From assembly GCA_016180965.1 (NCBI GenBank), contig JACPAF010000001.1, forward strand, positions 10,111 through 74,110: a stretch of DNA of 64,000 nucleotides, written 5' to 3'. The notes under the pieces were generated by a model. The model saw nothing but the letters and a program-made list of their open reading frames with translations, was not told the origin of the DNA and did not search any database. This DNA comes from Candidatus Aenigmatarchaeota archaeon. GTDB taxonomy: Archaea; Aenigmatarchaeota; Aenigmatarchaeia; JACPZZ01. Position 1 is the stretch's first letter, and each line of letters begins with the position of its first letter. Below are positions 38,257-63,794 of the stretch, piece after piece. The position numbers were made by a program, and so were the translations under genes.

Positions 38257-39246
38257 TTATTTTACAAGCTCGGTTTCCAGAGTTTCTTGGGGCGCCAAAT
38301 TAACGTCCAGTTTGTCCAGCAACTCGCAAACTTTACAAATTTCGCCGGAACATGGCTCTCCGCAGGTTTCGCATTCGGTTATTTCCGGCAACCCGCTTCT
38401 TGTTGCGGTCTCGCGTAAAACGGGCAGCATGGCGTCAAATGTGCGCAGGAAAGAGAATTTTGTGCCGGAGTGTTTTGCCTCAACGTCGTTTAGGAAATCG
38501 CGGACCTCGAACCGGATTCCGGAAACGTACGGGCATTCGCCCCAATAATTGCCGGCTTTCGTTATGAGTGCGTACAGGGCGACTTCTTTTTCCGGGATGT
38601 CGCGCAGCGGCTTGATGCGCGGGATAAATTTGGCATTTTTTACCATGGCAGGGCTCGGTCCCATGCGCGCAAGCCGTTTCAAATCGCCTTTTAGATAATT
38701 TATTAAAACCGCCTGCGCCTCGTCGTCCATGTTGTGGCCTGTGCAGACCTTTGTTGCGCCCAGCTCACGGGAGGCGCGGTTCAGCAAATAACGGCGGAAA
38801 ACCCCGCAAAACGTGCAAGAATTCAGGTTCTTGTTCTCGCCTCTGGCTCTTGCGGCCATTACGTCGTCGATGCTTTTTCCCAGATTGGTTTTAAAACTAA
38901 CAATGTAATGGTCGACGCCCAGCTTTCGCGTGAGCGATTTTGTCACTTCAAGGCTTTTGTCGCGGTAATGTTCAATGCCTTCGTCGATGCTAACCGCGAT
39001 TATCCTGATGTCTGGCCGTTCGCCGAATATCTTTTTCATCAGCGCCAAAGAGACAGAGGAGTCTTTGCCGCCGCTCAAACCGACGACGATAACTTCGTTT
39101 TTTCCCACCAAACTGTGCTCCCTGATAGTCCGTTTAACGCGCTTTTCGAACTGGTCTTTGAAACACGACGCACAATAAGAATTGCCTTCATACTTGCGGG
39201 TGTAAATCGCTCGCGCGCCACATGAACAGTTATCCACCGGAAACAA
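38257..39246 (-). CDS. ncsA: tRNA 2-thiolation PP-loop ATPase (NcsA/Ncs6/TtuA family)
   Basis: 329 aa. N- and C-terminal CxxC zinc fingers, SGGKDS PP-loop, CTFCGVFRR, GHNMDDEAQ. Confidence 0.85.
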   Translation of the reverse strand: MFPVDNCSCGARAIYTRKYEGNSYCASCFKDQFEKRVKRTIREHSLVGKNEVIVVGLSGGKDSSVSLALMKKIFGERPDIRIIAVSIDEGIEHYRDKSLEVTKSLTRKLGVDHYIVSFKTNLGKSIDDVMAARARGENKNLNSCTFCGVFRRYLLNRASRELGATKVCTGHNMDDEAQAVLINYLKGDLKRLARMGPSPAMVKNAKFIPRIKPLRDIPEKEVALYALITKAGNYWGECPYVSGIRFEVRDFLNDVEAKHSGTKFSFLRTFDAMLPVLRETATRSGLPEITECETCGEPCSGEICKVCELLDKLDVNLAPQETLETELVK

Positions 39247-39427
39247 CCTTCAGAATTTCAACATAATCGTTTTCTTTTATCGGCGAGTCGTCGGGCACTA
39301 TTTCGTTGTTTACGGAAACTAAAACAATTTCGGGGTTTATTTTTAACTCTTTTAATATTCCCAAGACTGTCTTGGAGCTTGTTTCCATCTCCTTGGCCTC
39401 TTCCAACCAGGCGATCTTGATCTTCAT
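39230..39427 (-). CDS. Ubiquitin-like sulfur carrier (ThiS/MoaD/SAMP-type) ending in Gly-Gly
   Basis: 65 aa. C-terminus ...EILKVVSGG. Overlaps the start of ncsA by 17 nt. Confidence 0.75.
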   Translation of the reverse strand: MKIKIAWLEEAKEMETSSKTVLGILKELKINPEIVLVSVNNEIVPDDSPIKENDYVEILKVVSGG

Positions 39428-39526
39428 GGCGTCACTAATAAGATAGTCAGATTTAAATAAAACTTCCGATACTTATCGGAACTTTACAGCCGAAAAGGAT
39501 GATGTATTACAAGTCCATATTGGTTT

Positions 39527-40162
39527 GTGTGCCCGAATAATTCTATCAAACTTGATCCCAACAAGGACGTACTAAAAGCTAGATTGTGCGGTTTTTTGGC
39601 TGCCGACGGCAGCGTTTTCATAAGAAAGGAGACCAGAACAGGAAAAATTCACCACTCTATGAGATTTTACCCTGACAACTTAGTACTAGCTCAACTTTTC
39701 AATGACGTGCTAAAAGGCGTTTACGGCAGAGAGGCGGCGATAAAGAGTATGGGAAATTATTACGCTCTATCTTTAACTAGCAAACAAGCTGTCACAGATC
39801 TTTTATCGATAGCCAGTTTCACGTCCAAAGGTTGGACATTTCCTGAAACCATTGTTACCAAAGATGCAAAAATCGAGTGGCTAAGAGCTTATTTTGATTG
39901 TGATGGTTATGTTGGTAAAAAATACATCCAGCTGCAATCGGTCAATGAAAACGGTATAAAAGTGATACAAAAACTGTTAGAAGATTTCGGAATAGAGTCC
40001 AAAATATACGATTATACGAGAAAGAACAAGTCCTGGAACATAAATTATCTGCTGAACATAAACAAGAGGGAAATGCGTATTAAATTTTTGAGAGAAATAG
40101 GGTTCAATCACCCATTAAAAAGGAAGAAATTGGAAAGTTTAATCAATGCCGAGGTCGCATAA
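39527..40162 (+). CDS. Free-standing double-motif LAGLIDADG homing endonuclease-like protein
   Basis: 211 aa, GTG start. Two LAGLIDADG motifs (LCGFLAADGSVF, LRAYFDCDGYVG). The last 15 nt overlap the 5' end of tRNA-Ser. Confidence 0.75.
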   Translation: MCPNNSIKLDPNKDVLKARLCGFLAADGSVFIRKETRTGKIHHSMRFYPDNLVLAQLFNDVLKGVYGREAAIKSMGNYYALSLTSKQAVTDLLSIASFTSKGWTFPETIVTKDAKIEWLRAYFDCDGYVGKKYIQLQSVNENGIKVIQKLLEDFGIESKIYDYTRKNKSWNINYLLNINKREMRIKFLREIGFNHPLKRKKLESLINAEVA

Positions 40163-40320
40163 CCAGGTCAGTGCACCAGATTAAAAAAGGTGATTCTCGA
40201 AAACTGGCGGGCGCAAACAGCTAGAAGCAACAGTAAACCGAAACATGTCATAGACATGTTTCAGTCTGAACCTGCTTCAGTTGGCGATTGCCCATGAGGG
40301 TTCAAATCCCTCCCTCGGCG
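40148..40320 (+). tRNA. tRNA-Ser-CGA: tRNA-Ser(CGA) with 30/31 mini-intron (40180-40194) and 73-nt hairpin insertion in the variable arm (40214-40286)
   Basis: GCCGAGG-TC-GCAT..GTGC-A-CCAG|15 nt|T-CTCGAAA-ACTGG-CGGGCG|73 nt|ATTGCCCAT-GAGGG-TTCAAAT-CCCTC-CCTCGGC-G. Discriminator G. The mini-intron has BHB core CACC/GGTG. Confidence 0.7.
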
Positions 40321-40527
40321 CTTTTAATTTTATTCGACCATTGGTTCGATAATTTGAACCGCCAATCGGTCTTACATCCTCCTGAGTGATCGCCTGCACC
40401 CGAGGGCCAATGCGCGTGTATTTTGCCATCTTCTTGTCGAATTGAACGCCACCACGCTGTTTTGAGAAGCCCGCTGTTCAAAAAACTTAAAAACCGCATT
40501 TTTACCAATAATCTATTAGGTGTTTCC

Positions 40528-40911
40528 ATGATAGCTGTTGTCGGCATTGTAGAGAATAACGGCAGGATACTGGTCGGAAAAAAGGTTTCCGGAAACAGTT
40601 TTCTTGCAGGCAAGTGGCACATACCAGGAGGCAAAGTTTTGCCCGGCGAAACGGATGAAATTGCGTTAAAGCGCGAGATGAAAGAGGAATGCGGAATAGA
40701 TGTTTCCGTAGGACGTTTTCTGGACGAATTTTACGAACCTGTCGCAGATATGCGTGCGAAATGGTTTTTGTGCTCTTGCGATGATGACAAATTAAAACCC
40801 GGCGGTGATTTGGCTGATGCCAAATGGGTTGATAAAAAAGACGCAATGGAAATCTGCGATAAAGACGCAATCGCGCGCTGGCCACGCAAAATCAAACGGT
40901 TTTTTGGTTAA
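40528..40911 (+). CDS. NUDIX hydrolase
   Basis: Start at the ATG at 40528. Nudix box GGKVLPGETDEIALKREMKEECG. Confidence 0.85.
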   Translation: MIAVVGIVENNGRILVGKKVSGNSFLAGKWHIPGGKVLPGETDEIALKREMKEECGIDVSVGRFLDEFYEPVADMRAKWFLCSCDDDKLKPGGDLADAKWVDKKDAMEICDKDAIARWPRKIKRFFG

Positions 40912-40988
40912 GCTTTTTATCAAAAAGGTTATTTTGGTTAAGCTTTTCAGGAAAAAGGTTATTTGGTTAAGCTTTTTATTAAAAAATT
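40904..40988 (+). repeat. Tandem direct repeat, about 30 nt x 2.8
   Basis: TTGGTTAAGCTTTTTATCAAAAAGGTTATT / TTGGTTAAGCTTTTCAGGAAAAAGGTTAT / TTGGTTAAGCTTTTTATTAAAAAATT. Each unit has a CTTTTT..AAAAAG hairpin. Lies between convergent genes. Confidence 0.8.
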
Positions 40989-40990
40989 CT

Positions 40991-41824
40991 TCATTCCCAA
41001 AATTCCTTGATTATTTCCTCGGATATCCGCGTTATGACGCGCTCAGGCACGAAAATTTCCATTGAAATGGTCTTGCCGTATTTTATTTTTTTCAATTCTT
41101 TCACGGTCCTGCGGAAATCTATTGACGCGATCCCGACCGGCAGGTGCTCGTCCATTTTCCCGTGGTTGTCGTGCATGTGTATGTGCTGGATGCGTTTACC
41201 GAATTTTTTGATGTGGTTCGAAATAGATTTCATGCCTCCGCCTATGAACGCATGGCCGATGTCAAGATTCACAGCGAGCCCGTCGACTTTTGAAATTATT
41301 TTTTGGAAGTCCTTTATCGATGACATTTCTGTGGTGTTTTCCAACATCACGACCATCGAATCACCGGCGTAATCCACCAGCTTCTTCATGTTCTCGATGT
41401 AGTTTGATATAACCTCTTTCAGCGTGCCGCGATCCGATAGCATCATGCTCTGCGAATGTGCGTGGAAAGTTATTTTTTCTATATTTATCCTCTTTCCCGC
41501 GTCTATGACCTTTTTACATTCTTCTAACCACGCGTCGCGCACTATTTCGTGCGGGCTGCCAAGATCTATCCACCACGCCGCGTGCCCGAGCGCGAACATC
41601 CTATGTTTTTTGATTATCCTGTTTATTTTGCCCGCCCTATTCGCGATTATTTTCGGCGACCCTTCCGGCTCCTCAATCCCGATTTCTACGAAATCAAAAT
41701 TAAGCGCCGCGATTTCACGTATTTCCTGCATCAAGTCCAATGAGGGATTTGTAGTTGTGCCGAACTTTGGCAGGCCTGGTTGATTGAAACGCATCTTGGA
41801 TGCGTTTCTGTCTGTCTCTACCAT
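40991..41824 (-). CDS. Sugar phosphate isomerase/epimerase (xylose-isomerase-like TIM barrel)
   Basis: 277 aa. FVEIGIEEPE, ITFHAH, LENT, NLDIGHAF, IHMHDNHG metal-site pattern. Confidence 0.7.
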   Translation of the reverse strand: MVETDRNASKMRFNQPGLPKFGTTTNPSLDLMQEIREIAALNFDFVEIGIEEPEGSPKIIANRAGKINRIIKKHRMFALGHAAWWIDLGSPHEIVRDAWLEECKKVIDAGKRINIEKITFHAHSQSMMLSDRGTLKEVISNYIENMKKLVDYAGDSMVVMLENTTEMSSIKDFQKIISKVDGLAVNLDIGHAFIGGGMKSISNHIKKFGKRIQHIHMHDNHGKMDEHLPVGIASIDFRRTVKELKKIKYGKTISMEIFVPERVITRISEEIIKEFWE

Positions 41825-41888
41825 GGAATTAGTTCTCCTAAAGCCAATTTAAATAGAAGCCTACAAAACGGTTTGTTCGGTATGTTGC

Positions 41889-41978
41889 AACAGACGCTTG
41901 GAGTATGCGTCTGTTTCGGTCAACCGCTGAATCATATGCATTTGGGAACTAGACTCGTATGATAGTATGAGTCTTGTT
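41889..41978. repeat. Two family hairpins upstream of tRNA-Val(CAC)
   Basis: AACAGACGC-TTGGAGTAT-GCGTCTGTT (41889-41915) and CTAGACTCGTATGA-TAG-TATGAGTCTTGTT (41949-41978). The latter ends 5 nt (ACGAC) before tRNA +1. Confidence 0.75.
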
Positions 41979-41983
41979 ACGAC

Positions 41984-42056
41984 GGGTCCATGGTCTAGTG
42001 GTTAGGACGTCGCGTTCACATCGCGGAGATCGCCGGTTCGAATCCGGCTGGACCCA
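41984..42056 (+). tRNA. tRNA-Val-CAC: tRNA-Val(CAC), intronless
   Basis: GGGTCCA..TCGCG-TTCACAT-CGCGG..GCCGG-TTCGAAT-CCGGC-TGGACCC-A. Confidence 0.9.
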
Positions 42057-42066
42057 ATAGTCGATT

Positions 42067-42102
42067 GAAGCATACCGATACAATCATAGGCATGTTTCTA
42101 GT
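42067..42102. repeat. Family hairpin (imperfect) downstream of tRNA-Val(CAC)
   Basis: GAAGCATACCGATA-CAATC-ATAGGCATGTTTCTAGTT. A further CTGAAACTTTCTT-CA-AAGAAAGTTTGTT hairpin lies at 42109-42136. Confidence 0.65.
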
Positions 42103-42134
42103 TACTGACTGAAACTTTCTTCAAAGAAAGTTTG

Positions 42135-42626
42135 TTATAATTTGCTCGAAAGGCTCATCTTCGACGATGCTATTTCCTCGCCAGTTTCCGCGTCAATTAC
42201 GGTAGAGATCACGTTAAAGTTTTTCAGGAATATGTTGACCTGCCACGTTGGCCCAGTTTCGGCGTTAGCGTTAGTCGATGTTCGTAAAACTGAAACCACG
42301 CGCGAAATGGATTCTTTTGGGGCTTTTGCCAGGCATTTTTTCATGGCTTCCTCCGGATCCATTTTGGCTTTGTCAATTTCCAGGGGCATTATTTCAGTCT
42401 CTTTCATAGGCGGCGATAAACCGGAAAATTCCATCCCGTTTTCCGTCGCGTTGAACGATGCTATTTCATTTTTCTCCCGATTGTAGAAATTTACGAGCGC
42501 AGAATTGGCTTTTGACTCAAGAGCGCTCGTGACCAACATAACTGACGAAAAGAAATAGTTTTGCTTATTCAGCTCTGAGACCCTTTTATTGGTTTCGACA
42601 AGGCTTTTAATCTTTTGTATATCCAT
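42135..42626 (-). CDS. Hypothetical protein (possible PepSY-like C-terminal region)
   Basis: 163 aa. C-terminal ...VIDAETGEEIA pattern is reminiscent of PepSY. Weak. Confidence 0.45.
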   Translation of the reverse strand: MDIQKIKSLVETNKRVSELNKQNYFFSSVMLVTSALESKANSALVNFYNREKNEIASFNATENGMEFSGLSPPMKETEIMPLEIDKAKMDPEEAMKKCLAKAPKESISRVVSVLRTSTNANAETGPTWQVNIFLKNFNVISTVIDAETGEEIASSKMSLSSKL

Positions 42627-42686
42627 TTAGACCTACGAACTAATAATTCAAGCGTAGAAGATAAATAAGTTAAAGTCGACTGAAAC

Positions 42687-42759
42687 GGGCCTATGGTCTA
42701 GTGGTTAGGACGTCGCGTTTACACCGCGAAGACCGCCGGTTCGAATCCGGCTGGGCCCA
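42687..42759 (+). tRNA. tRNA-Val-TAC: tRNA-Val(TAC), intronless
   Basis: GGGCCTA..TCGCG-TTTACAC-CGCGA..GCCGG-TTCGAAT-CCGGC-TGGGCCC-A. Confidence 0.9.
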
Positions 42760-42971
42760 CTGGCAGACTGATGCATATCTCGGATATGCGTCTGATCGTA
42801 ACCGCCCTTTTGTGATCAAAAGCGCTGGCGGAAAAAAATAATTATACGAATGCGTGTAAACAGGAAACGTTAGGCTGTGGGAAAGCAAGTTTTGTAATAC
42901 AAAACTGCTGCAGTTTATCTGAAGATAAACTTGCAAACCTCAGGTTTTCGTGGTCGACTGACGCAGAGGTA

Positions 42972-43012
42972 AACTGAAGCATATCGATAGTGCATACGGT
43001 ATGCTTCCAGTT
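42972..43012. repeat. tRNA-linked bulged palindromic hairpin (family copy)
   Basis: AACTGAAGCATATCG-ATAGTGCATA-CGGTATGCTTCCAGTT, ending 5 nt (GTGAC) before tRNA-Ala +1. Confidence 0.8.
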
Positions 43013-43017
43013 GTGAC

Positions 43018-43106
43018 GGGCCGGTAGATCAACGGTAGATCGCCACATTGGCATTGGAAAGAGACCAAAATTGTGGAGGCTTCGGGTTCGAATCCCGACC
43101 GGTCCA
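43018..43106 (+). tRNA. tRNA-Ala-GGC: tRNA-Ala(GGC) with canonical 37/38 intron (43054-43070, 17 nt)
   Basis: GGGCCGG/CCGGTCC with G3:U70. CCACA-TTGGCA|intron|T-TGTGG. BHB core TTGG/CCAA. Confidence 0.9.
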
Positions 43107-43309
43107 AATAACCTTTTAAAAAAAGGTTAATCAAAACTTAAGCTTGACCAAAATTCGTAAGACCCAAGCAAAGCTCATAAAACTGCTGCAACAATTCTAA
43201 TTTGCCCGATGAAGACACCCAATGGGCGGACTGAGGGCGCTATTTTTGCGTACCAGACACAAAACATGTTTTATTAAGAGTTTTGGATAAAAGTTAATCA
43301 GGGAGCCTT

Positions 43310-44494
43310 ATGGAAAGTTTTGCTGTTTTGCTTATAGCTTCGGTATTGTTCCTAGGATTCCTGTTTTTAGGAACTTACGCAATGGACGCCCAATATAACA
43401 GCGCCAGCGGCGGGTTCTGGGGCGGGCTATTTGGGCCTGCTCCTAAAAAAACATCGCTGATGAGGATCGATTTAACCTCGTTCCCGCAGTTCTTTATCGG
43501 ATTTACCAAGGAAGACAAAGCACGCACAGTCAGTTATGAGGATTTTTCCCTGGGCTCAGAATCGTCGATGAACATCAAGAATATTTTGTCACAAGACATA
43601 TCGAACGGGCTGTTTTCTAACGACGAATTATCACTGGATGTAAAGCTCGAACAGGCTACAGTTAGCGAGGCGACTGGAGCGACACTGGTGTTTGAAGTTG
43701 TGGATACTAACAATTACGGCAATCTTGTAGCCTCGTGGAACGGTAAAGAATATTTCAACGGCAAACCTCCCACGGGCAAGATTTCGTTAAAGCTTCCCAA
43801 AGAGTCGCTGAAGAGTGAGAATAAACTTGAAATAAAATCCACGGGCCCCGGCGCAAGGTTCTGGGCCAACTCCGTGTATTCACTGAAAAACATCAAACTG
43901 GATTTGCTGACAGTTTCCAAGAGGACCCTTTTCTTCGAGGTGTTCCCGGAAGAAATGTCGTCGTGGAGTTCTGGCGTACTCAATTTTAAGCGCGCGGATT
44001 ATTCTTCACAGAACGGAGTGATAAAAGCCTACGTGAATGGAAAACTTGTTTACAACAGATTTCCGAATGAGGGGGATAAAATAGAAATCGGACCCAATGA
44101 CATAAGGTCCGGAAGCAACCTGATAAGCTTGGAATCTTCAGCCGGGACTTTCAACCTAAAAAATATTTTCTTAAACGTGTTTTTGTGGAAAAACAGGACA
44201 TCTGGCATAACCAACTCGTTTGTCTTGGATGAAAGCGATGCAATGCTGTTAAACAAAACCGGATATACAGGAGTCATAGATATAACGATGGGCGAGATCC
44301 TGAAAGCCGCTCCGCTGGAAATAAGATTTTCCGAGAACAAGACGGTCAAATCTATATTCATTACGGAATTGAAAGACCGCGTTGTCGCAACTTTCGACGA
44401 GGACCAGGTTGTGGCTGGAAACAACACGATGACATTCGCAACTGACGGTTCCATGAGGATAGCTTCTGTTGACGTTTTCATCCAGGGTCGATAA
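43310..44494 (+). CDS. Secreted/anchored hypothetical protein
   Basis: 394 aa. N-terminal TM/signal, beta-rich remainder. First gene of a same-strand cluster. Confidence 0.55.
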   Translation: MESFAVLLIASVLFLGFLFLGTYAMDAQYNSASGGFWGGLFGPAPKKTSLMRIDLTSFPQFFIGFTKEDKARTVSYEDFSLGSESSMNIKNILSQDISNGLFSNDELSLDVKLEQATVSEATGATLVFEVVDTNNYGNLVASWNGKEYFNGKPPTGKISLKLPKESLKSENKLEIKSTGPGARFWANSVYSLKNIKLDLLTVSKRTLFFEVFPEEMSSWSSGVLNFKRADYSSQNGVIKAYVNGKLVYNRFPNEGDKIEIGPNDIRSGSNLISLESSAGTFNLKNIFLNVFLWKNRTSGITNSFVLDESDAMLLNKTGYTGVIDITMGEILKAAPLEIRFSENKTVKSIFITELKDRVVATFDEDQVVAGNNTMTFATDGSMRIASVDVFIQGR

Positions 44495-59828: not shown

Positions 59829-62800
59829 ATGAGAAAAGCCGCGGCAAAAAAGCAGTCGATGCAGGAAATAACCGAAACTGTTGAAAAAAACGAGGACGCT
59901 TCGAAAGCTGTGGGAAAAATTGTTTCTAGGGCGCTTGCTGTGAAACCGGAAAAGGGGTTCGTCGTTCCGAAATCAAAAGTTCGGCTGGTTGTTAGGAAAC
60001 TCATAGGCGCATCAGGTTACAAACAGGAACGCCGGGAAAATCCGATAGAAGAAATAATTAACAACCCGCAAAAACTGAAAAAAATCGCGGAGAAATATGG
60101 CGTTTCCGAATCTTCCATAGAGGATATTTACCACAGGCTGACAAGGCTGGAAGACCGCTCACGGCCAGGCATGTCGCCCGAAGACATGTTATCTTTGCGC
60201 AACGATTTGGCATCGGTCAAATCCGCGCCGGATTTTGGAAGATTAAACGACATAGATGAAATACGCCAAAGCCTTTCCGGAATTGAAGAACGCCTTGAGA
60301 ATGGAACTTCGAGCGCGGAGGACAAATTGCGCGAGGCTGAAATAGAAAGAGACAGCCTGGTTAAATCAAAGGACGAGGTCGAACGCAAATATTACAAACG
60401 GGAAATAGACGAACAAACTTTCAAAAAAATGATTTCGGATTACGAACAACAATTGATAAAAACCGAGGAAAAAATAAAAAGTTACCGGGCGCAAGGAACT
60501 AAACTGGGAATACCGAGGCCGGGCATAAAAATGGATCGCGTGTTCGAAAAATATGCCAAAGGCTTCAAAGCGGTTTATTTTCCAGTCTACGGCCAGGCCA
60601 TGCAACAGCAGATGATGCAGCCCGTGCAAGCTGTACAGCAAAACACAGAATCTCTGCGCCCTATTATAGCGATTGAAAGCAAAAACGTGATATCAAAAAG
60701 CGTTATCGACGGGATAGAAATACCGGACATGTCCAAGAAGGCCGAGCCGATTGACGCGGAACAAATTGAAAACATAATGAACATAAATGTAGTTTATCCG
60801 CTGATTCCGAGGGCGCCCGCAAAAGGCGAGACAGTTTATTCGTACACCAACATCAAATGGGACCAGCCGGACAACGCATTAGTTTACAACGTATTCGAGC
60901 CCGGGCTGACAGCTGAGGAAAAACACATACTTTCCAAGAGCAAAGAACTTCTTGAAGAGCGGTTAAACATAGACCTTCGAAAACTCCGAAAAGCCGAGGC
61001 GGTCAGCTATCTGATGAGACAAACGGATGACGTTTTTTCATTGATGGGCATCAAATTGGACCAGAAAAGGGTCGATGTGCTAAAATATTACATCAAAAGG
61101 GACTTTGTCGGACTGGAAAGGATAGACCCGATGATGAATGACCCGAACATAGAAGACATAAGCTGCGACGGCACGAACATACCGATTTACATATTTCACA
61201 GAAACCCGCTGATAGGTTCGATAAGGACAAACGTGAAATTCACCGACCAGAGAACACTGGACAATTTTGCGGTCAGGCTTGCGCAACGCGCGGGCAAAAA
61301 TATATCCGTTGCTAATCCCCTGTTGGACGGCACACTAACAGACGGCTCGCGAGTGCAAGCGACTCTAGGAACTGATATAGCGAGGCGCGGGTCGAATTTC
61401 ACAATAAGAAAATTTACCGATATACCATTAACTCCGATTGACATGCTGAATTACGGGACGATGAATGCGACAGCGCTTGCCTACCTTTGGATGGCTGTGG
61501 AAAACGGCAAATCTGTTTTAATCGGCGGATCAACCGCATCCGGTAAAACGACTTTGTTGAACGTGTTGTCCCTTTTCATAAAGCCCAACAAGAAAATAAT
61601 TTCGATTGAAGACAGCGTGACGGGAGACTCCGAAATACTGGTTAACAGGAACGGGTCGTTTGAAAAATTGCCGATTGAAAAATTGGTTGACGGACAGATA
61701 GAGAAGTACGGCAACGAAAAAGACGTCTTCGGCACGGAGTACTGCCAAACGAATCCGGAGGGCGTGCAAACTTTTTCAATGGATACAGAAGGAAAAATAA
61801 AACTCTGCCCGGTCAGGTCCTTTGTCAGGCACCGTGTAAACAAAGACGTTCTTGAGGTCACAACAAGGGCTGGCAGGAGAATCAAAGTTACGGGTGACCA
61901 TTCACTTTTTTCCTTGGACACGAATGGGAAAATAATTCCGGTAGAAGCGAGGAGCCTGCTAAAGGGAAGTTTTATAGCGACGCCAAGAACCTTACCGCAC
62001 GATACTAGAAAGCTGGAAAGCATCAACCTGCTTTCCGAAGCAAAATATTTGGAAGGCGTGTTCGTGGAAGGGGACGGATTGAAACACATACCAATACCGG
62101 AGTTGGTGAGGGCGGGCGCGAATGGGCGTCAAAAAAATAAATGTATTACGGACGGCCTGATTCCGGTGGAAATTTTCAACAGACTTAACAACGCTGAAGA
62201 ATTTATCGACGCACCAGGCGGGCTTTCGATAAAAGCCGGGCGGGGAGGCAAGGCTGTGAAAGCCGTTCTCAAACTGACTGACGAATTTTTAACATTGGTC
62301 GGCCTTTGGCTTGCAGACGGATGTTATGACAAAAATTCCGTTTTGATATCCGCTGCGAATGACGCTGAATGTAAATACTCCATAGAGCAGGCGGCATCCC
62401 AATTGGGGCTGGACTGCAAATACCACAGCGACGGGATAACGTACATGATAAACTCAACCGTACTCAAAAAGGTGATGGAAAATATTCTCGGGATTCGCGG
62501 GGACGCGTATACGAAAAGGGTTCCCGACTGGGTTTATAATCTAGGGATCGAGCAGATTTCCTGCCTGCTAAAAGGTTATTTCAGCGGGGACGGTTCGGTT
62601 TCAAAGGATGAGATAGAGGCAAGTTCTTCGTCCATCGGACTGATTAAAGACGTACACACCATGATGCTAAGGTTGGGAATAATGTCAAGGTTCACCACAA
62701 AGATCAAGGAGCGCGACAAAACCTATAGGATCCGGATAAGCGGATCTGAAAACCTGAAGATGTTCTGCAAAAAAATCGGCTTTTTACAAAAATACAAACA

Positions 62801-63794
62801 GGAAAAATTGGCTAATCGGTCGTTGATATTTGCAAACCATACAATTACCGATGTTATTCCTGTTACGAAAGAATTTTTGAGTGCATTGGCCGAGGAGGGC
62901 GCAATTTTTAACAGCAATTCATATTGGTACGGCAGCAAAATAGGCAGGAATGCCATGGGTAAAGCTGTTTTGCAAGGCGAAGGTAAATTCTTGTCCAAAG
63001 CCGCGCAGCTTGCAAATTCGGATCTTCTTTGGGACGAGATACTGGAAATACGAAACCTGGGCAAAACAGAACTTTATGTTTATGACCTCAGCGTCCCGAA
63101 TTTCGAAAATTTTGTGTGCGAAAATGTTATAGCGCACAATACGCCTGAATTACGTTTACCGCACCCTCACTGGGTGCCCGAGGTTGCGAGGACCGCAATA
63201 TCGGACACCGAAGGCAGGAAGATGGGAGAGGTAGACATGTTTGACCTGCTAAAAGAAAGTTTAAGACAACGGCCGGATTACATAATAGTCGGCGAAGTGC
63301 GAGGCAAAGAGGCGTACGTTTTATTCCAGCAAATGGCGTCGGGCCATCCTGGCATGTCCACGATACACGCCGACAGCATATCCAAACTTGTTGACAGATT
63401 AACAACGCCGCCGATAAGCCTGCCGGGCAACCTGATACAAAACCTTGACGTCCTGATATTCAGCGACACAACCAGCTTCAAGAGCAAGAACGTCAGGAAG
63501 ATAGACACGATAATGGAAATTGTCGGATATGAAAACGGCGCGCCGGTAGGCAATGTCGTTTTCAAATGGGATCCTGTGAAGAATTACCTGCGGGTTGTCG
63601 GGAAAAGCGCGCTTCTCAAAAAAATCGCGTACAGCAACAACATGTCGGAAAAAAACGTACGCGAGGAAATTTCTAACCGTGTGAAAGTTTTGGAGTGGAT
63701 GCAGGACAAGGGGATAAACGGTTTTTCATCGGTCGCTAAAATGTTCAACTTGTACACATCGGACCCGGAAAAAGCCCTTGCCATGGTCGATTAA
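59829..63794 (+). CDS. FlaI/PilB/VirB11-type secretion ATPase (type IV pilus assembly), intein-containing, with long N-terminal coiled-coil extension
   Basis: ATG at 59829 (upstream in-frame TTG at 59808). IEDISCDG, Walker A GGSTASGKTT, split Asp box IISIED|...|TPEL, IIVGEVRGKEA, His box SGHPGMSTIHA. Confidence 0.85.
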   Translation: MRKAAAKKQSMQEITETVEKNEDASKAVGKIVSRALAVKPEKGFVVPKSKVRLVVRKLIGASGYKQERRENPIEEIINNPQKLKKIAEKYGVSESSIEDIYHRLTRLEDRSRPGMSPEDMLSLRNDLASVKSAPDFGRLNDIDEIRQSLSGIEERLENGTSSAEDKLREAEIERDSLVKSKDEVERKYYKREIDEQTFKKMISDYEQQLIKTEEKIKSYRAQGTKLGIPRPGIKMDRVFEKYAKGFKAVYFPVYGQAMQQQMMQPVQAVQQNTESLRPIIAIESKNVISKSVIDGIEIPDMSKKAEPIDAEQIENIMNINVVYPLIPRAPAKGETVYSYTNIKWDQPDNALVYNVFEPGLTAEEKHILSKSKELLEERLNIDLRKLRKAEAVSYLMRQTDDVFSLMGIKLDQKRVDVLKYYIKRDFVGLERIDPMMNDPNIEDISCDGTNIPIYIFHRNPLIGSIRTNVKFTDQRTLDNFAVRLAQRAGKNISVANPLLDGTLTDGSRVQATLGTDIARRGSNFTIRKFTDIPLTPIDMLNYGTMNATALAYLWMAVENGKSVLIGGSTASGKTTLLNVLSLFIKPNKKIISIEDSVTGDSEILVNRNGSFEKLPIEKLVDGQIEKYGNEKDVFGTEYCQTNPEGVQTFSMDTEGKIKLCPVRSFVRHRVNKDVLEVTTRAGRRIKVTGDHSLFSLDTNGKIIPVEARSLLKGSFIATPRTLPHDTRKLESINLLSEAKYLEGVFVEGDGLKHIPIPELVRAGANGRQKNKCITDGLIPVEIFNRLNNAEEFIDAPGGLSIKAGRGGKAVKAVLKLTDEFLTLVGLWLADGCYDKNSVLISAANDAECKYSIEQAASQLGLDCKYHSDGITYMINSTVLKKVMENILGIRGDAYTKRVPDWVYNLGIEQISCLLKGYFSGDGSVSKDEIEASSSSIGLIKDVHTMMLRLGIMSRFTTKIKERDKTYRIRISGSENLKMFCKKIGFLQKYKQEKLANRSLIFANHTITDVIPVTKEFLSALAEEGAIFNSNSYWYGSKIGRNAMGKAVLQGEGKFLSKAAQLANSDLLWDEILEIRNLGKTELYVYDLSVPNFENFVCENVIAHNTPELRLPHPHWVPEVARTAISDTEGRKMGEVDMFDLLKESLRQRPDYIIVGEVRGKEAYVLFQQMASGHPGMSTIHADSISKLVDRLTTPPISLPGNLIQNLDVLIFSDTTSFKSKNVRKIDTIMEIVGYENGAPVGNVVFKWDPVKNYLRVVGKSALLKKIAYSNNMSEKNVREEISNRVKVLEWMQDKGINGFSSVAKMFNLYTSDPEKALAMVD
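61614..63140 (+). mobile_element. Intein (509 aa) with LAGLIDADG homing-endonuclease domain
   Basis: Starts SVTGDSEIL (Ser1), block B VTGDHSLF, DOD motifs LVGLWLADGCYD and LLKGYFSGDGSV, ends VIAHN followed by Thr+1. Splicing it out restores the canonical IISIED-TPEL. Confidence 0.85.

Follow-up and report, generated by a model that had tools for sequence, protein, structure and literature searches.

The tRNA-Ser(CGA) locus

A stretch of 64,000 nucleotides from a Candidatus Aenigmatarchaeota archaeon (contig JACPAF010000001.1, positions 10,111 to 74,110; hereafter the window) was analyzed in this study. It belongs to an assembly of 0.73 Mb in 7 contigs (GCA_016180965.1, here G000) and contains a free-standing gene for a double-LAGLIDADG homing endonuclease, which lies between a TATA-bearing leader and a tRNA-Ser(CGA) gene and runs in frame into the first bases of the tRNA (Table 1). 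An earlier note on this DNA had described a GTG-started open reading frame (ORF) of 211 aa with two LAGLIDADG motifs, placed at the extreme 5′ end of a tRNA-Ser gene and overlapping it by 15 nt. ORF, overlap, tRNA and the position of the insert at the very front of the tRNA gene were all recovered as described.

Table 1. Features of the tRNA-Ser(CGA) locus and its homing endonuclease gene (HEG), in coordinates of the window.
Feature	Position	Strand	Description
Archaeal TATA box TTTAAATA	39453..39460	+	Same AGATTTAAATAAAA block before tRNA +1 in relatives
Inverted repeat TTCCGATA-CT-TATCGGAA	39464..39481	+	Arms 39464-39471 and 39474-39481; 8 bp
GCCGAAAAGG	39489..39498	+	GCCGA (= tRNA +1..+5) plus CGAAAA box (matches anticodon loop CUCGAAAAC)
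Double-LAGLIDADG HEG, free-standing	39527..40162	+	211 aa; GTG start; TAA stop at 40160-40162
ORF/tRNA overlap	40148..40162	+	15 nt; GCC GAG GTC GCA + TAA = tRNA positions 1-15
tRNA-Ser(CGA) gene	40148..40320	+	Exons 40148-40179, 40195-40209 and 40283-40320
Intron 1 of tRNA-Ser(CGA), bulge-helix-bulge (BHB) type	40180-40194	+	15 nt, at 30/31
Intron 2 of tRNA-Ser(CGA), BHB type	40210-40282	+	73 nt, in the variable loop; holds nested hairpins

The endonuclease gene and its product

The 211-aa protein matches the Pfam family LAGLIDADG_3 above the cut-off (E 3.8e-19) and carries two LAGLIDADG motifs in a single chain, LCGFLAADGSV (residues 20-30) and LRAYFDCDGYV (residues 119-129). Its closest relative of solved structure is the endonuclease domain of the PI-PfuI intein (1dq3, E 1e-11), in which Asp27 (39605-39607) and Asp126 (39902-39904) are aligned to D149 and E250, residues that we take to be catalytic. 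The pair D126-G127 is invariant in an alignment of 9 relatives. A loss of the catalytic acidic residues, named in the earlier note as a possible objection, is not seen, as both D27 and D126 are present.

An AlphaFold2 model of the protein (predicted local distance difference test score 91.4, predicted template modeling score 0.88) contains the pseudo-symmetric α-β-β-α-β-β-α fold. A Foldseek search with this model recovered PI-PfuI (E 5.6e-15) and I-DmoI (template modeling score 0.81-0.84, root-mean-square deviation 2.4-2.8 Å), with WhiA among the weaker structural matches. Because both catalytic aspartates are aligned and the model superposes on I-DmoI, the protein is predicted to be a monomeric, two-motif, I-DmoI-like enzyme that retains both catalytic residues and cleaves DNA, and not a decayed remnant.

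Two oligo-T tracts are present in the ORF (39592-39597 and 40085-40089). They were considered as terminators and dropped, since their number is not above the genome background. Elsewhere in the window, a weak LAGLIDADG match (E 1.6e-4) at 62565-62813 (+) falls within a 1357-aa open frame and probably represents an intein-borne endonuclease in a large protein.

Leader and putative promoter

The AGATTTAAATAAAA block is found 24-27 nt before tRNA-Ser +1 in G002, G001 and G004:C3, and is also present in G005 and G006. Judged by sequence, the TATA box of the window corresponds to the tRNA-Ser(CGA) promoter of HEG-less relatives, and we infer that it is used as a promoter here as well.

The inverted repeat that follows shares its 3′ arm TATCGGAA with the HEG-bearing loci L144 and G004:C10, and lies outside the GAAAC...GTTTC hairpin family that precedes other tRNAs. 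The leader hairpin of the earlier note is indeed present at this place, but it comprises only 8 bp, one T of its loop had been dropped, and the outer AAC/CTT bases form two of three pairs. It had also been proposed to mimic a hairpin-spacer-tRNA +1 arrangement. Such an arrangement occurs at 14 of the 28 tRNA genes, but the hairpin of the present locus is shorter, differs in sequence and ends 7 nt before GCCGA. The tRNA hairpins of the genome measure 9-12 bp, belong to one sequence family (GAAAC/GAAGC...GTTTC/GCTTC, or GACTCATAC...GTATGAGTC) and end 8-11 nt before +1; four of the tRNAs concerned are located in the window (6373, 14888, 41984 and 43018) and 10 more were counted genome-wide. Hairpins of the same family are found within tRNA introns as well; the tRNA-Ser genes of the window, G001 and G006, for instance, have them in their variable-arm introns.

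Downstream of the inverted repeat, CTTTACA is followed by GCCGA (39489-39493), which begins 29 nt past the TATA box, compared with a TATA-to-+1 spacing of 24-27 nt in HEG-less relatives; by our own estimate, a 5-mer would match by chance within so narrow a range of positions at p ~0.02. A 13-codon upstream ORF (ATG ATG TAT ... GAA TAA; 39499-39540, +), preceded by an AAAGGA purine stretch, overlaps the GTG start of the endonuclease gene in another frame, possibly reflecting translational coupling or chance.

The tRNA-Ser(CGA) gene and its overlap with the endonuclease gene

The tRNA-Ser(CGA) gene is the sole copy in the assembly. It is matched by the Rfam tRNA model with 36.6 bits (cut-off 29; E 3.9e-05), and the spliced tRNA of 85 nt folds perfectly. 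Both introns fit the BHB rule as tested here (a 4-bp central helix and a 2-nt bulge that is cleaved behind its second base), their central helices CACC/GGUG and CUGG/UCAG each forming 4 of 4 pairs, and an intron-less orthologue is present in G004:C3. The anticodon stem changes compensatorily across species (CCAG/CUGG versus CUGG/CCAG), and the gene is therefore under selection. Multi-intron tRNAs, this one included, are missed both by default ARAGORN and by a quick Rfam look. The orthologue in G005 has three introns, one of them in the T-loop, and an intron of G004:C10 lies at 8/9.

The TAA stop codon of the ORF is formed by U13-A14-A15 of the tRNA D-loop. This in-frame run into tRNA +1, with the stop at U13-A14-A15, is common to the window and to loci L144, L145, L149, L150, L090 and L045.

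Just 3′ of the tRNA, an imperfect long hairpin (GACCATTGGTTC...GAACCGCCAATCGGTC; 40334-40370, +) is located in a segment of ~60 nt that is missing from G002, the closest HEG-less relative. Its similarity to the tRNA is non-significant; a terminator, a repeat element and a decayed tRNA 3′ relic are all conceivable. An archaeal RNase P RNA is encoded in the same genome (G000 contig C2, 311566-311971, minus; L031), and aligns to the entire model with 59.7 bits (E 1e-16); as this score is below the Rfam gathering score of 84, the RNase P RNA is divergent.

The same site in congeners

A pattern of the tRNA 5′ exon, with ≤3 mismatches allowed, gave no match in congeners because the D-loops differ, and congener loci were found through synteny with the NcsA-like neighbor. 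The upstream order of an NcsA-like PP-loop ATPase, a ThiS-like protein and the TATA box is kept in every congener. The earlier note had suggested looking for an empty site in relatives, and four were identified: in G002, G004:C3, G005 and G006 the promoter is followed directly by the tRNA, with no endonuclease gene in between. G001 is likewise HEG-less and shows a footprint-like partial copy of the tRNA 5′ end (GCCGAGG-GCATAA-TTAT) immediately before the tRNA. In G004:C10 the same slot is occupied by a LAGLIDADG gene of 31% identity that belongs to another subclade, accompanied by an extra GCCGAGGTA copy. A 78%-identical orthologue with the same synteny was identified at L144 (NCBI JAIYFX010000053.1), where the junction reads ...ATC AGT/GCC GAG GTC GCA TAA.

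Single Logan contigs from groundwater metagenome runs cross both junctions of the insert; these runs may be the source samples of the metagenome-assembled genome (MAG) itself and are not counted as independent support. In the groundwater runs, the read depth of the endonuclease region equals that of its flanks, and a co-occurring sister species of similar abundance is without the insert.

Recurrence before other tRNA genes

A homology search with the 211-aa protein recovered 89 proteins at E ≤ 1e-8. Contexts from the clade of the window's enzyme make up 9 of ~90 (the window and eight homologues of 78-40% identity), a small sample in which all nine loci sit directly 5′ of tRNA-Ser, seven of the eight homologues before tRNA-Ser(CGA) and one before tRNA-Ser(GGA). 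LAGLIDADG genes were also identified before tRNA-Ser(GCU) in G043, before tRNA-Ser(GGA) in L042 and before tRNA-Arg in L045, L078, L090 and L101, and, on metagenome contigs, before tRNA-Leu (L120, L133), tRNA-Asp (L127, L143) and tRNA-Pro (L108); some of the tRNA identities on metagenome contigs rest on our reading of the anticodon loop. Related loci are present in named Aenigmatarchaeota MAGs, and several relatives of the protein lie in rRNA genes or inteins. The earlier note had considered that relatives might occupy unrelated loci, which would speak against its interpretation; relatives were again found at tRNA 5′ ends.

The endonuclease tree follows the identity of the adjacent tRNA. In a tree of 16 proteins, the label of the adjacent tRNA changes 5 times, which is the minimum, compared with a mean of 8.7 after shuffling, and none of 200 shuffles was as low. 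The enzyme of G004:C10 groups with a tRNA-Ser(GGA) enzyme of another lineage (95% support in the Shimodaira-Hasegawa-like approximate likelihood ratio test) and not with that of the window, which fits the prediction of horizontal movement. From the sequences retrieved, the clade appears to be a large one in DPANN archaea, whose fetched members all lie directly 5′ of tRNA-Ser, with sister clades before the tRNAs for Arg, Leu, Glu, Asp and Pro.

The same genome encodes a second LAGLIDADG ORF of 232 aa and 24% identity (G000 contig C5, minus, ~6496-5748; L003 1388-2136), which extends ~65 nt into tRNA-Glu(UUC) and has its stop at the end of a D-loop intron of ~49 nt. At this locus the cassette lies exactly between leader and +1 without any relic, and the site is empty in three congeners (G004, G005 and G006).

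Upstream copies of tRNA 5′ ends were sought at 11 HEG-tRNA loci, and a significant one was detected in L042 only (Aenigmatarchaeota JAGVVZ010000001.1, 1439-2251). Here, a 15-nt 5′ fragment of tRNA-Ser (GCCCAGGTCGCATAA) lies ahead of the endonuclease gene, and the ORF reads through the whole of the tRNA-Ser(GGA) that follows. Pairing of the fragment with the 3′ acceptor strand of this tRNA is perfect, whereas the tRNA's own 5′ strand forms a U-G wobble. At L107 (metagenome contig Ga0187771_10089419, 1343-2200), a 34%-identical relative is flanked by a complete tRNA and, downstream, by a tRNA-like 3′ part without a matching 5′ acceptor strand.

Replacement tRNA genes in relatives

Loci L145-L148 share a common order, in which the promoter is followed by a 26-31-nt 5′ part of an old tRNA-Ser, the HEG, a complete tRNA-Ser(CGA) and a 24-34-nt old 3′ part. 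The acceptor sequence of the old 5′ part is GCCGAGG or GCTCAGG, to which the acceptor strand of the old 3′ part, CCTCGGC or CCTGAGC, is complementary. The complete tRNA differs in its acceptor stem (GCUGGAG/CUCCAGC) and carries an intron of 13-15 nt at 30/31. Because the two relics are complementary to each other and the new tRNA differs from them, the HEG and the complete tRNA are seen to lie within an older tRNA-Ser gene that has been broken apart. The arrangement indicates that the element destroys the resident tRNA gene and brings a replacement, which is demonstrated in L145-L148 and only suspected for the window. The relics can act as homology arms for further homing.

The left relic in L148 and L150 includes the anticodon loop and has TTCGAAAAC as its end; the right relic begins within the variable loop (CAAGCCCAT...). 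A (T/C)CGAAA box is present 32-48 nt before the start codon in L147-L150 (TTCGAAA(A/T)) and in L144 (ATCGAAAATG), and the window has GCCGAAAAGG at this distance. In L148 and L150 the box continues the recognizable old tRNA 5′ part and represents the old anticodon loop (CUCGAAAAC).

The anticodon stem CCAG/CUGG and the 30/31 intron are both found in the window, L144, G004:C10 and G001, and neither is present in G002 and G005, the closest HEG-less relatives of the window, in what is a small and phylogenetically non-independent sample; HEG-less G006 has the stem type without the intron. That both features are common to HEG-linked and footprint loci and missing from G002 and G005 gives a hint that the tRNA of the window may be the element's own. 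Among the loci first examined, the 30/31 intron is present in 6 of 6 HEG-linked tRNA-Ser(CGA) genes (the window, L144, G004:C10 and L145-L147) and in the G001 footprint, and is missing at four HEG-less loci. The possibility that this mini-intron shields the HEG-linked tRNA from self-cleavage is not relied on here; the old destroyed tRNA copies in L148 and L149 also seem to hold a 30/31-type intron, which counts against it.

Proposed mobility and expression of the element

We consider it probable that the locus holds an intact I-DmoI-like HEG lodged behind the tRNA-Ser(CGA) promoter and directly before tRNA +1, that HEG and tRNA move as a unit, and that the site is gained and lost within the genus. 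The enzyme would cut HEG-less tRNA-Ser genes, and repair from the occupied locus would copy the cassette. Transcription from the conserved tRNA promoter would start near 39485-39490 and continue through the ORF into the tRNA, which RNase P would free by cutting at 40147/40148 (tRNA +1), and the splicing endonuclease would then remove the two BHB introns. As a transcript cut by RNase P would lose the last four codons and the stop of the ORF, enzyme synthesis and tRNA maturation would compete for each transcript, and this competition would hold enzyme levels low.

Several observations weigh against this interpretation. No obvious ribosome-binding site was identified before the GTG start, and the A-rich stretch ATTAAAAA inside the ORF (40114-40121, -34 to -27 from tRNA +1) could serve as a separate internal promoter of the tRNA. 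The runs that hold the locus are DNA metagenomes only. Local alignment of either flank of the window's element to the tRNA was no better than alignment of shuffled sequences, and the acceptor stem of the window tRNA is that of HEG-less congeners; it is for these last two reasons that a cassette with its own tRNA is only suspected in the window.

A more general idea, to which we give somewhat less than an even chance, is that LAGLIDADG gene and tRNA constitute a self-complementing homing cassette, a third route to harmlessness beside introns and inteins. The cut would fall near the anticodon-stem/variable-arm region, as the relic boundaries in relatives suggest, and the HEG together with a complete substitute tRNA would be copied between the halves of the old gene. 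The host would then rely on the cassette tRNA, transcribed behind the ORF and freed by RNase P, and the ORF would need no stop codon of its own, one being supplied by U13-A14-A15 of the D-loop. The copy in the window would represent an old, settled insertion with its relics almost decayed.

Alternative explanations

The earlier note had favored a simple insertion of the HEG at the front of a resident tRNA gene with a 5-nt target duplication. Such an event, at +5/+6 (or -1/+1) and with a 5-bp duplication of GCCGA, would leave the original tRNA downstream, in agreement with an acceptor stem identical to that of the congeners, with the location of GCCGA, 29 nt after the conserved TATA and thus approximately at the +1 position of HEG-less relatives, and with the relic-free cassette between leader and +1 at the tRNA-Glu locus. 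We nevertheless regard it as unlikely, as the match comprises only five nucleotides and the closest orthologous locus, L144, reads ATCGA in its place. LAGLIDADG enzymes are moreover known from textbooks to leave 4-nt 3′ overhangs and not 5-nt duplications, and relatives carry long relics on both sides and no short duplications. Because GCCGA shares bases with the CGAAAA box found throughout the clade, and this box represents the old anticodon loop in L148 and L150, GCCGAAAAGG with its GCCGA probably derives from an older tRNA-Ser copy that was disrupted and has since decayed, and the proposed duplication is not supported. In the window alone, GCCGA is indistinguishable from chance.

An origin of the 0.66-kb segment as a BHB or group I intron of the tRNA acceptor stem, with GCCGA at 39489 as exon 1 and the enzyme intron-encoded, is hardly credible, even though the tRNA gene already holds two introns at non-canonical positions, archaeal rRNA introns bear LAGLIDADG genes (textbook knowledge) and the GCCGA repeat leaves the boundaries ambiguous. 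The tRNA 3′ of the ORF is complete from +1 with no exon missing, and in the six registers allowed by the repeat the central helix reached at most 2 of 4 pairs, compared with 4 of 4 for each of the two true introns of the same tRNA, which served as positive controls. No Intron_gpI match was obtained from Rfam at E ≤ 1 across 39000-44000, and the upstream repeat is missing in most relatives. With a complete tRNA downstream and boundaries that accommodate no BHB motif, the segment is not an intron. An intein was also considered and is excluded, as Pfam revealed no intein splicing domains in the 211-aa ORF and the ORF stands alone; the endonuclease gene is thus free-standing, in neither an intron nor an intein. 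It is also quite improbable that the protein has been domesticated and is immobile, acting as a WhiA-like regulator of the tRNA-Ser locus or as an RNA chaperone for a multi-intron tRNA. An intact ORF that is fixed in the strain at a depth equal to that of the flanks, 78% identity kept at the same locus in a sister lineage, and the presence of WhiA among the weaker structural matches would all be compatible with a host function. However, both catalytic aspartates are retained, the gene is patchily distributed among congeners whose tRNA works without it, another subclade occupies the same site in G004:C10, its nearest relative being next to another tRNA-Ser isoacceptor in a different lineage, and relics of destroyed tRNAs flank the relatives, which together are hallmarks of a selfish element.

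Significance and comparison with known systems

Homing endonucleases in conserved genes are thought to persist only because an intron or intein is removed from the gene product. If our interpretation is true, the front of a tRNA gene is an alternative lodging for LAGLIDADG genes, in this genome and in those of dozens of uncultured archaea and bacteria, and represents a different solution. It may also explain part of the odd tRNA genes of tiny-genome archaea, such as those with duplicated 5′ ends, relic halves or many introns, and would provide a pool of natural enzymes that presumably recognize tRNA-gene sequences. For genome annotation, such ORFs call for caution because the real tRNA genes they overlap escape standard tRNA finders. 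In the literature searched, neither a fusion of archaeal LAGLIDADG genes to the 5′ ends of tRNAs nor a cassette of HEG and replacement tRNA was found described.

Like I-DmoI of archaeal rRNA introns and the intein endonuclease PI-PfuI, the enzyme of the window has the fold of a two-motif monomer with catalytic acidic residues and would target highly conserved RNA genes by the same logic. Unlike these enzymes, whose insertions are neutralized by RNA or protein splicing, the gene lies outside the mature tRNA, and in relatives it comes with a substitute tRNA. A copy of the tRNA end is also found in the attP of integrative elements that have tRNA genes as their targets. They resemble the present element in that a tRNA gene is disrupted, the displaced part is supplied, and a functional tRNA and a relic remain. 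Those elements, however, rely on integrases of the tyrosine or serine type, are directed at the 3′ part and restore no more than a segment, whereas no integrase is involved here, the HEG would act as the mobility gene, and in relatives a whole tRNA is brought.

Insertion sequences bearing LAGLIDADG genes have been described in rRNA genes of bacteria of the Candidate Phyla Radiation (PMC11270868). They share with the present element an occurrence in ultra-small uncultured lineages and the association of LAGLIDADG genes with stable-RNA genes without a self-splicing ribozyme; they interrupt the rRNA, whereas the present element precedes the tRNA.

The closest described system is SegB of phage T4, and the element of the window is of the same kind, that of free-standing homing endonucleases. 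SegB is a free-standing GIY-YIG endonuclease encoded in the T4 tRNA gene cluster, which recognizes a conserved motif of the tRNA T-arm and spreads together with neighboring tRNA genes through gene conversion, a process of intron-less homing (PMC2330249). In both systems a free-standing endonuclease gene is located among or next to tRNA genes. The phage gene lies between tRNA genes without entering one, and no broken resident tRNA with a replacement is described for it; the element reported here encodes a LAGLIDADG enzyme, resides in a cellular DPANN archaeon, has its ORF in frame with tRNA +1, and belongs to a set of clades each of which is tied to one tRNA identity.

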